Below are positions 41,214-44,237 of a stretch of 53,419 nt of DNA, in pieces. How positions within the stretch are numbered: the first letter of the stretch is position 1; every line of letters begins with the position of its first letter. Below the pieces are notes generated by a model that was not told the DNA's origin, searched no databases, and saw only the letters and a program-made list of their open reading frames with translations. The stretch lies in sequence record SRR20825019_2071, one strand, 5' to 3'. The translations under genes were made by a program, and so were the position numbers.

Positions 41214-41327
41214 TGGAGGTAAAAATAAGATATTTAGTGATCTTTTGACCTTAGAAAGGGAGATTTCGTTCCTTCAAATTGCTTCATTTCTCTATCTTTG
41301 CGCATTCATTTGTTGAGCAGTAGAATC

Positions 41328-44237
41328 ATGGAGTATAACTTTGTAGAAATAGAGAAAAGTTGGAGAAAATTTTGGGCTGAGAATAAAACATTCAAAGCAG
41401 AGGAAATTTCCACTAAACCAAAATATTATGTGCTAGACATGTTTCCATACCCTTCAGGGGCAGGATTGCACGTTGGTCACCCGCTCGGATATATCGCTTC
41501 GGATATTTTTTCTCGTTACAAACGTCTCCAAGGGTTTAATGTTTTGCACCCAATGGGATATGATTCTTTCGGATTACCGGCAGAGCAATATGCTATTCAA
41601 ACGGGTCAACATCCTGCAGTTACAACAAAAACGAACATTGAAGGCGGTGTTGATAATCAGGGAAATAAAATTTCAGGGTATAGAAATCAACTAGACATCA
41701 TGGGATTCTCATTCGATTGGGACCGTGAAGTTAGAACGTCATCTAAAGAATACTACAAATGGACGCAATGGATTTTTAAGCAAATTTTTGATTGCTGGTA
41801 CAATAATTCCACAGACAAAGCGGAGCGAATAAATGAGTTAGTTGCCATTTTTGAAAAAGAAGGAAATACTACCGTGAATGCGGTTCATGATTGCGAAATC
41901 ACTTTTTCTGGAGCTGAATGGAATGCATTTTCGGAAGCTGAACAGCAGAAAATATTAATGAATTACCGATTGACCTACTTGGCAGATTCATGGGTGAACT
42001 GGTGTCCTGCGTTGGGAACCGTATTAGCGAATGACGAAGTAGTCAACGGTGTTTCTGAGCGAGGTGGACACCCTGTAGTTCAAAAACTAATGCGCCAATG
42101 GTCGATGCGAATCAAAGCATACGCAGAACGATTATTAACCGGTCTAGAAACGGTTGATTGGACGGATTCGATTAAAGATATGCAACGCAACTGGATCGGG
42201 AAATCTGTTGGAGCAAGCGTGAAATTCAAGGTTGACTTCGAATCTGGTCTATCGAATGTTGACTTCGACTCCGCTCAGTCAACAGATGGAAGTGAGTTGA
42301 GCGCAGTAAACGGTGGGTTGAGCGGAGTCGAAACCCACGAAATCGAAGTATTCACAACACGCCCAGACACGATCTACGGTGTTTCTTTCATGGTGCTCGC
42401 ACCAGAGCATCCACTTGTAGATCTCATCACTACACCAGAGCAAAAAGAAGCAGTTGAGGCATATAAAAAAGAAGCCTCGTTGAAATCAGAACGAGATCGC
42501 CAAGCGGACGTGAAAAATATTTCGGGTCAGTTTATTGGTGCGTACGCCATTCACCCGTTTACAGGAGAAAAAGTTCAAATCTGGATCGGAGACTACGTTT
42601 TGGCTTCCTACGGAACAGGCGCTGTAATGGCAGTTCCATGTGGAGATCAACGCGATTGGGATTTTGCGAAGCATTTCAACATAGAAATCAAAAACATTTT
42701 CAAGGACATTGATATTTCTGAAGCAGCATACACGGAGAAAGACGCTGTGATCACGAATTCAGATTTCCTAAACGATCTTCCAGCAAAAAAGGCCATTAAA
42801 TTGGCTGTTTTCGAAATCGAAAAACGCGGAATCGGGAAAGGACAAACGAATTACCGTTTGAGAGATGCGGTGTTCTCACGTCAGCGTTACTGGGGAGAAC
42901 CATTTCCTGTGTATTACAAAAACGAGATTCCATATTTGGTAGCGGATGAACATTTGCCGATCACGCTTCCAGAAGTAGATAAATACTTGCCGACAGAAGA
43001 TGGTGAGCCGCCGTTAGCACGCGCAGAAAAAGACGCTTGGAATTACCACGAAGGAGACCGAATGGAGTTCAATACGATGCCTGGTTGGGCAGGAAGTTCT
43101 TGGTATTTCTTGCGTTACATGGATCCAACGAACGACAATGAATTCGTTTCCAAGGAAAAAGTAGATTACTGGCAAAACGTGGATTTATACATTGGTGGTT
43201 CTGAACACGCTACGGGGCATTTATTGTACTCGCGTTTTTGGACAAAATTCTTGTATGATTTAGGATATATTCCGTTTGAAGAGCCGTTCAAGAAAATGAT
43301 CAACCAAGGGATGATTTTGGGGAGGTCGGCAATCGCATTTTTGGATGAAGAAGGATCGCTCCATTCTTATGACCTAATAAAAGACAAAGTCTCTGACGGA
43401 GGATTTAGAGAAGTTAGAATCCTTATTGATCTGATAAATGATGATGAAAGTATCAGGATTGATGATCTCATGGCGTGGCAACCCCAGTTCAAAGAAATTA
43501 ATATTGTTTCTAATTCAGAAGGAAAGGTAATCGTAAAAAGAGAGGTTGACAAAATGTCCAAACGATGGTTCAATGTTGTAACTCCTGATGATCTTTGTGA
43601 AAAATTCGGTGCAGACACATTACGTATGTACGAAATGTTCTTGGGACCATTGGAGCAAAGCAAACCTTGGGACACTAAAGGAATCAACGGAGTGCACAAC
43701 TTCTTGCGTAAACTGTGGCGTTTATTCTTCGATAAAGACGGCAACAAAGTTCTCGAGAACGGTGAACCGACAAAAGACGCATTGAAAACATTGCACAAAA
43801 CGATCAAGAAAATCGGTGACGATTTGGAACGTTTCTCGTTTAATACTGGAGTTTCGAACTTCATGATTTGCGTAAACGAGTTGACAGAGCAAAAATGTCA
43901 CAACGCTTCTATTTTGAAGGAATTAGTGGTGTTGCTTTCACCGTATGCGCCACATATCGCAGAAGAACTGTGGGTGATTTTAGGAAACGAGCCAGGTACG
44001 GTTGGAGTTCAATCTTTCCCTACGTTTAACGAAGCCTTTTTGATCGAAGCAAATCACGCTTACCCTGTTTCTTTTAATGGTAAAATGCGCTTTAAACTTG
44101 AACTTCCTGCTACTTTAACGAAAGAAGAAGTGGAGAAAGAAGTGCTTGCGAACGCACAGACACATAAGTATTTGGATGGAAATGCAGCGAAAAAGGTAAT
44201 CGTTGTACCCGGAAAAATTGTGAATGTGGTGATGTAG
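41328..44237 (+). CDS. leuS: Leucine--tRNA ligase (start reassigned to ATG 41328)
   Basis: MFPYPSGAGLHVGH, FTTRPDT, GTGAVMAVP, FSRQRYWGEP, KMSKR; TATCTTTG promoter at 41293-41300. Confidence 0.98.
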   Translation: MEYNFVEIEKSWRKFWAENKTFKAEEISTKPKYYVLDMFPYPSGAGLHVGHPLGYIASDIFSRYKRLQGFNVLHPMGYDSFGLPAEQYAIQTGQHPAVTTKTNIEGGVDNQGNKISGYRNQLDIMGFSFDWDREVRTSSKEYYKWTQWIFKQIFDCWYNNSTDKAERINELVAIFEKEGNTTVNAVHDCEITFSGAEWNAFSEAEQQKILMNYRLTYLADSWVNWCPALGTVLANDEVVNGVSERGGHPVVQKLMRQWSMRIKAYAERLLTGLETVDWTDSIKDMQRNWIGKSVGASVKFKVDFESGLSNVDFDSAQSTDGSELSAVNGGLSGVETHEIEVFTTRPDTIYGVSFMVLAPEHPLVDLITTPEQKEAVEAYKKEASLKSERDRQADVKNISGQFIGAYAIHPFTGEKVQIWIGDYVLASYGTGAVMAVPCGDQRDWDFAKHFNIEIKNIFKDIDISEAAYTEKDAVITNSDFLNDLPAKKAIKLAVFEIEKRGIGKGQTNYRLRDAVFSRQRYWGEPFPVYYKNEIPYLVADEHLPITLPEVDKYLPTEDGEPPLARAEKDAWNYHEGDRMEFNTMPGWAGSSWYFLRYMDPTNDNEFVSKEKVDYWQNVDLYIGGSEHATGHLLYSRFWTKFLYDLGYIPFEEPFKKMINQGMILGRSAIAFLDEEGSLHSYDLIKDKVSDGGFREVRILIDLINDDESIRIDDLMAWQPQFKEINIVSNSEGKVIVKREVDKMSKRWFNVVTPDDLCEKFGADTLRMYEMFLGPLEQSKPWDTKGINGVHNFLRKLWRLFFDKDGNKVLENGEPTKDALKTLHKTIKKIGDDLERFSFNTGVSNFMICVNELTEQKCHNASILKELVVLLSPYAPHIAEELWVILGNEPGTVGVQSFPTFNEAFLIEANHAYPVSFNGKMRFKLELPATLTKEEVEKEVLANAQTHKYLDGNAAKKVIVVPGKIVNVVM
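42231..42338. repeat. Palindromic REP-like element embedded in frame in leuS
   Basis: Hairpins TGTTGACT-TCGACTCCGCTC-AGTCAACA (42257-42284) and GTGGGTT-GAGCGGAGTCGA-AACCCAC (42313-42338) with mutually complementary 12-nt loops. Confidence 0.85.

Follow-up and report, generated by a model that had tools for sequence, protein, structure and literature searches.

The leucyl-tRNA synthetase (LeuRS) gene leuS in the 53,419-nucleotide stretch of DNA SRR20825019_2071 (hereafter the window, meaning the whole stretch that was analysed) raises the question of how an essential enzyme came to carry some 30 extra residues a few positions ahead of a motif of its editing domain, and what those residues are. 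The homologues of the gene product carry the Pfam domains PF00133, PF09334, PF13603, and PF08264, and its matches to LeuRS chains in the Protein Data Bank reach E-values down to 1e-45. The extra segment is probably a doublet of a small hairpin repeat that is translated in frame with the enzyme; two inverted copies are each accompanied by a decayed tandem duplicate. Events of this type are known, while the repeat family involved is one that we did not find described; neither the family, which is characterized by a 12-nt loop, nor a hotspot for it in LeuRS appeared in the literature searched, in which the supplements of PMC3733652 (lists of intragenic repetitive extragenic palindromic elements, REPs) were not covered.

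The flagged peptide sits between SVKFKV and HEIEVFTTRPDT, as a sequence-only reading of the window had quoted it, and the leuS frame stays open across the segment, although V-D and H at its outer ends may be native. That reading also described two hairpins with different stems and complementary 12-nt loops, and these are present (Table 1). Both stems are perfect, hairpin B is the unit of hairpin A in inverted orientation, and the two loops with their closing bases make a 14-nt inverted repeat that is 100% complementary (42264-42277 and 42319-42332, 41 nt apart). A perfect 14-nt inverted pair at this distance is far beyond chance. With up to 2 mismatches allowed, the 14-mer occurs in the window at only these two places, where 0.33 would be expected and 4 of 100 shuffles reach two. 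The short internal duplications that had been noted are real and longer than first stated: a direct repeat with a 27-nt period joins 42228-42249 to 42255-42276 (82% over 22 nt), another with a 21-nt period joins 42292-42307 to 42313-42328 (88% over 16 nt), and a manual count gives 19 of 27 identical positions between A' and 42258-42284. We therefore read the layout as A'-A-spacer-B'-B. In contigs of four sequencing runs over 41900-42700 the insert is unchanged wherever it is covered, with one low-depth difference at 42273, and no deletion form is seen in these contigs, which cannot reveal rare variants.

Table 1. Positions of leuS, of the parts of its extra segment, and of related features in other genomes (unprefixed numbers refer to the window).
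Feature	Position	Strand	Description
leuS (leucyl-tRNA synthetase)	41328..44237	+	969 amino acids from ATG at 41328; frame extends to TTG at 41298
Flagged segment, VDFESGLSNVDFDSAQSTDGSELSAVNGGLSGVETH	42231..42338	+	36 codons, in frame in leuS; ~30 extra relative to the basal loop
A'	42231..42257	+	Decayed tandem copy of hairpin A, 27-nt period; encodes VDFESGLSN
Hairpin A	42257..42284	+	8-bp stem TGTTGACT/AGTCAACA; 12-nt loop TCGACTCCGCTC at 42265-42276; sense; encodes (N)VDFDSAQST
B'	42292..42312	+	Decayed tandem copy of hairpin B, 21-nt period; stem lost; encodes SELSAVN
Hairpin B	42313..42338	+	7-bp stem GTGGGTT/AACCCAC; loop GAGCGGAGTCGA at 42320-42331; encodes GGLSGVETH
TTRPDT codons (Thr-rich editing motif of CP1)	42354..42371	+	15 nt / 5 residues past the segment; align to T. 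thermophilus LeuRS 247-252
DUF559 in LeuRS loop	L040:2867-3313		Labelled Polaribacter
DUF559 in LeuRS loop	L062:3856-4299		Labelled Polaribacter
DUF559 in LeuRS loop	L077:1232-		Labelled Arenicella
DUF559 in LeuRS loop	L190:235-720	-	Crocinitomicaceae
DUF559 in LeuRS loop	L173:1066-1524	-	Crocinitomicaceae
DUF559 in LeuRS loop	L223, L224, L226		Crocinitomicaceae
Hairpin-bracketed GIY-YIG genes	L240:1479-1861, L281		G140:C1:171980-172340, 322504-322913

Comparison with other LeuRS proteins identifies the segment as an insertion. In a phmmer alignment with T. thermophilus LeuRS (1h3n/2v0c) the match breaks at the segment, query residues 14-103 aligning to chain residues 147-237 and query residues 138-219 to chain residues 242-323, which leaves 34 residues in the window LeuRS against 4 (238-241) in T. 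thermophilus; the loop had been expected, about correctly, to hold some 5 residues in typical LeuRS. The motif that follows, TTRPDT, functions in editing. Among 80 LeuRS loci fetched across Bacteroidota and beyond, 79 of which had recognizable flanking motifs (all except L045), the distance from WIGKS.G to TTRPDT was 17 residues in 48 of 79 loci, compared with 47 in the window. A sample drawn evenly from the Crocinitomicaceae (81 genomes, of which 78 gave a match and 75 a usable site, making 76 rows with the window) contained a basal loop of 16-18 residues in 45 rows, the 12-nt-loop hairpin repeat in 6 (window included), a G/C-run palindrome in 10, a whole DUF559 nuclease domain of 153-241 residues in 5, and other inserts in 10. 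At least 22 residues were found in the loop of 105 of the 120 closest database LeuRS proteins, a fraction that is biased upwards by a search query containing the insert. The proposal of an in-frame insertion of about 30 residues just before the Thr-rich motif is borne out by these alignments, and where protein-level conservation of the segment was looked for in distant LeuRS without the palindrome, the opposite was seen.

The hairpin unit belongs to a repeat family dispersed in Bacteroidota genomes. Its members are about 27 nt long and consist of a stem of variable sequence (4-9 bp) around a nearly invariant 12-nt loop, the loop of hairpin A. The core pattern TCGACTSCRCTC occurs 56, 18, 14, 14, and 0 times in the genomes of five relatives (reversed control, 0), at least 10 times in 11 of the 81 Crocinitomicaceae genomes (reversed control at most 2), and at least 10 times in 28 of 301 Bacteroidota genomes, with a maximum of 130 copies in a 2.6-Mb genome (reversed control at most 4). 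In relatives, at least, the core is thus the dispersed and mostly intergenic repeat that the sequence-only reading had recognized in it. The exact 26-nt hairpin A is found at 6 other loci, all on metagenome contigs and intergenic-looking (none within an open frame), some with an inverted partner. The doublet arrangement of leuS also recurs: 10 of 20 copies fetched from genome G001 form plus-then-minus doublets whose starts lie 51-62 or ~110 nt apart, the spacing in the window being 55 nt.

Intergenic copies have a characteristic position. Crude open reading frame (ORF) calls put 19 copies in sense orientation no more than 40 nt past a gene end, compared with ~5 in the opposite orientation, and the commonest setting is between convergent gene pairs. 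Many copies end in CCTTTT, 2-20 nt past stop codons, where a hairpin with a T-run might serve as an intrinsic terminator; the leuS copies have no T-run. A unit that follows a stop codon by a few bases, in sense and often as one of a convergent pair, is in the usual position of a REP. Copies inside reading frames are not confined to leuS, since the nearest genome, G069, has three in a MenD-like thiamine pyrophosphate enzyme, where two frames are used (FDSAQ once and STPLS twice), and another in a PKD-domain protein. The most repeat-rich genome, G140, has 63 forward and 67 reverse matches. A replication-strand bias in this genome was considered and rejected, as a run of 28 consecutive plus copies was an artefact of setting all 63 forward matches against only 37 of the 67 reverse ones, and no clear replichore pattern was found by GC skew in twenty 20-kb samples. 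In G259, G319, and G140 the doublets run minus-then-plus with a distance of just 19-30 nt, the opposite of the arrangement in G001 and the window, and here the two 12-mers could themselves form the stem of a larger hairpin.

It is the loop of this family that is conserved, while its stems vary and covary. Copies from seven genomes fold as hairpins with a common loop and differing stems (GGTGACT/AGTCACC, GCAGGCT/AGCCTGC, ggyNNC/GNNaacc). For 91 distinct copies and a 9-bp stem, 72% of cells pair, compared with 49% after shuffling (0 of 500 shuffles reach the observed value) and 20-43% in slid controls. All 9 stem pairs show double-sided changes, the third pair from the loop being AU in 29 copies, CG in 21, GC in 10, and UA in 9. 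The copies had been found by their loop, and an independent search was therefore anchored on the stem (GTGRYT-N12-ARYCAC); of its 17 sites in G001, 15 had the family loop, as did 12 of its 19 sites in G041. The earlier suggestion of a conserved loop with variable stems is confirmed by both approaches. The pattern suggests that the unit is recognized as a folded single strand by some enzyme.

Several observations weigh against reading the segment as a mobile hairpin doublet that leuS merely tolerates. The 53-kb window contains no further hairpin copy, and dispersal in the organism's own genome would have to be judged from its relatives. The core-encoded peptide motifs occur 41 times in 121 LeuRS proteins, all at this loop, so that chance landing alone is insufficient. 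Hairpins A and B have stayed perfect in the window while the protein on either side shares only ~80% identity with its closest relatives, and hairpin A of G012 differs by a compensated pair (TGTTGGCT/AGCCAACA); together these could mean selection on structure and not neutral decay. Moreover, no mobilizing enzyme for the family was found among the REP-associated tyrosine transposase (RAYT)-like, DUF559, and GIY-YIG genes examined. A link to RAYTs was rejected, as 9 RAYT-like Y1 loci in 7 repeat-rich genomes (G001, G041, G033, G078, G060, G074, and G054; other Y1 genes were not inspected) have no core-like hairpin within ~1 kb; the ORFs are 167-197 amino acids where complete, and two repeat-rich genomes gave no Y1 match. 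DUF559 was rejected on the evidence of four free-standing genes (L116-L119, in G069, G001, and G041), which are flanked by inverted palindromes of a different family, of the CCCCCTT..GGGGG type. GIY-YIG was rejected because the hairpin flanks only 2 of 10 genes, both in G140. Those two genes (106 amino acids, 70% mutually identical) are each bracketed by inverted 12-nt-loop hairpins at matching distances; the 8 without brackets are the third copy of G140 and 7 genes in three other genomes.

The state of the stems bears on the alternative that the hairpins are kept as a selected cis element in the leuS mRNA or DNA, acting in ribosome pausing, message stability, or factor binding at the 12-nt loop. 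Besides the perfect stems and the compensated pair, the phylum-wide conservation of the loop and the strong covariation of the stems are what such an element would show, and the RNA of 42225-42345 folds at -40 kcal/mol into a minimum-free-energy form that pairs both loops as one long stem. Between this form and a kissing loop the mRNA might switch, as the sequence-only reading proposed. However, the z-score of this fold is only -2.1, with 8 of 200 shuffles folding equally well, and Rfam gave no match above noise over 41900-42700. The same hairpin lies at dozens of unrelated places per genome and is not leuS-specific, only 1-4 bp are left of one stem or of both in the LeuRS genes of G069, G025, and G049, and the 45 basal rows among the 76 in the family sample manage without any insert. 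We consider a cis element very unlikely.

At the LeuRS loop, the nearest relative, G069 (81% identity over 220 residues), has an A'-A-spacer-B layout like that of the window. In G012 both hairpins are present, with hairpin A read in another frame (STPLS), and G025 reads hairpin B as SERSRR; across lineages the hairpin DNA is read in three frames (FDSAQ, STPLS, and LRLRS, as well as LSGVE and SERSRR). On a tree of 180 flanking residues, which is short and has a poorly resolved backbone, the 6 carriers require 6 changes, of which supported branches force at least 4, and basal versus inserted states require 14 changes, at least 10 forced. Inserts have thus landed in the LeuRS loop repeatedly, whether they are targeted to it or few other places in the enzyme can accept them. 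Some LeuRS relatives (P0037, P0011, and P0004) carry 3-5 tandem FDSAQST-type units, in loops of up to 70 residues. Tandem copies of this type suggest slippage-driven expansion at hairpins. In the doublet reading, whole hairpin units would have arrived first, landing where the CP1 editing domain begins, in a turn that joins two beta-strands, and would then have grown by slippage.

Elements of other kinds have entered the same loop. Whole DUF559 (PF04480) domains lie there in frame in 3 of the 80 fetched loci and in the 5 Crocinitomicaceae genomes (Table 1), with Pfam matches at E-values from 1e-27 to 6e-36, and are bounded by short G/C-run palindromes (encoding peptides such as LPPSLSTGKGE ... 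LPTGKEAGW). The CCCCCTT..GGGGG-type palindromes that flank the free-standing DUF559 genes encode PLWRG, FPPSEGDKGGG, and HPPLSPFKGGE in the loop of the 10 relatives with a G/C-run insert. Another palindromic doublet, with arms TGAACTTGTTTCAG and CTGAAACAAGTTCA and the peptides PELVSGS ... MLKQVQHD, occupies the loop at L037:3991- (labelled Psychroserpens) and L042:3856- (an unclassified Bacteroidetes metagenome-assembled genome).

This recurrence raises the possibility that the loop is specifically targeted and not merely permissive, with the element or its enzyme recognizing the loop DNA; in one variant the 3' arm of the element would pair with a short target (GGTGA or GTTGA, for instance), and insertion would recur there. 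Comparisons of orthologous sites speak to this for four loci only (L085, L090, L094, and L097). At L085 and L090 the G001 hairpin begins exactly after a gene-end TGGTGA; because TGGTGA is also present in relatives free of the element, the 5' arm at these loci is target or host sequence. In leuS, likewise, GTTGA of the 5' arm falls on Val-Asp codons that are native in basal relatives. In all 7 genomes examined, conservation is higher in the 3' arm than in the 5' arm. The concentration of core peptide motifs at the loop and the number of changes forced on the tree are further points for targeting. Conversely, at L094 and L097 the element brought both arms to sites where there had been no matching target; at the intergenic site L097 the hairpin is a clean 27-nt indel, present in G001 and absent from G041. 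Stem variants also recur as subfamilies (e.g., ACACT/AGTGTCC), which speaks against targeting, as do the shortness of the sequence behind the tree and the enrichment of the 120 homologues by their insert-containing query. Microhomology at the IEVF codons is not decisive: 4 of 6 core-bearing genes and 11 of 45 basal genes have TCGAAGT there. On balance we regard specific targeting as possible, if doubtful. Copying of the stem from the target at every insertion was rejected as an explanation, being contradicted at L094 and L097.

On a broader version of the same idea, mobile DNA of several kinds would truly home to the turn before TTRPDT in Bacteroidota, the hairpins inserting by a hairpin-guided, single-strand mechanism in which the loop is the enzyme's handle. 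Such a mechanism would explain stems that are variable and still complementary, because the 3' arm would pair with the target or be copied from it. We think it unlikely. The facts of movement fit an element with a conserved loop and 3' side that favours stem-like targets, but a comparison of four loci is too small a basis for such a claim.

As for the enzyme, the insert would be translated, and its ~30 Ser/Gly/Asp-rich residues are probably disordered and tolerated rather than useful. Residues 201-420 were modelled by AlphaFold at low overall confidence (mean predicted local distance difference test, pLDDT, 62), and the model leaves its residues 107-133 unstructured (pLDDT 28-30) between strands at 96-103 and 138-143; in this model the insert fits a floppy surface loop. 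A co-opted role at the protein level, in which the loop modifies LeuRS editing or tRNA handling, would agree with its place 5 residues before TTRPDT and with the retention of an insert in many members of a Fluviicola-like clade. The peptide, however, is low in complexity, predicted to be unstructured, and hypervariable in sequence and length (22-70 residues), and its DNA is read in three frames, whereas unrelated elements fill the same loop in other lineages. We hold co-option to be highly improbable. The insert would be neutral.

Selfish palindromic DNA that is kept in frame inside an essential gene and read as an extra surface peptide recalls the Rickettsia palindromic elements (RPEs), reportedly described by Ogata and colleagues in 2000. 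RPE-1 to RPE-8 have units of ~100-150 bp. The hairpin unit of the Bacteroidota family is 27 nt, its doublet with duplicates reaches ~100 nt, and the lineage is different. The comparison with RPEs made by the sequence-only reading stands for behaviour, namely residence in frame, and not for membership. Translation of RPE-1 has been shown, according to a survey of intragenic REPs (cited in Di Nocera, De Gregorio & Rocco 2013, BMC Genomics 14:522, PMC3733652). In the parts of that survey consulted, residence of palindromic repeats in frame is an established feature of both Rickettsia and REPs, tRNA synthetase genes included, and some intragenic REPs are in frame, their dimers encoding 20-30 residues. 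Like the REPs described there, the present units are short, palindromic, and mostly intergenic downstream of genes, often stand as inverted pairs, and have some in-frame copies; unlike them, the family has a long loop (12 nt) that is its most conserved part, most of the surveyed REP loops being very short, and Bacteroidota are mentioned only once in the same parts (PMC3733652). REPs also bear a conserved GTAG or CGTC tetranucleotide at one end; no such tag lies within 9 nt of the loop in the per-genome consensus of the 91 copies, and the 3' tails are CACC, AACC, or TGAC.

Two kinds of mobile system offer further comparisons. In the REPIN/RAYT system, associated with Bertels and Rainey (2011), REP doublets are said to be moved by Y1 HUH transposases. 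The family shares with it inverted hairpin doublets with a short spacer and tens of copies per genome in relatives; the two differ in that the RAYT-like genes described above are not flanked by the hairpin. Bacteroidetes have their own subclass of TnpA-REP (2.6), with "atypical secondary structures" (Quentin et al., 2018, PMC6006769). With the LeuRS-embedded DUF559 elements the leuS doublet has the loop in common, but it carries no gene and its ends are unrelated to their G/C-run palindromes. Target-site duplication of the kind left by miniature inverted-repeat transposable elements is not evident at L097, and two other sites among the four loci compared overlap the pre-existing TGGTGA.

The best-known cases of selfish palindromes read as protein come from Rickettsia and from the REPs of proteobacteria; the leuS segment adds free-living Bacteroidota, with a phylum-wide repeat family defined by a conserved loop and not by its stem. 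At least three unrelated mobile elements have entered a single loop of an essential enzyme, which makes that loop a test bed for target choice and for the load of extra peptide that an editing domain can carry. For annotation, the variation in LeuRS length among the relatives seen (924-1276 amino acids) is largely mobile DNA and not new domains.

The same enzyme has a second lineage-specific insert in its catalytic domain, at window 41637-41669, of 11 residues (about IEGGVDNQGNK, residues 104-114) and without an inverted repeat.

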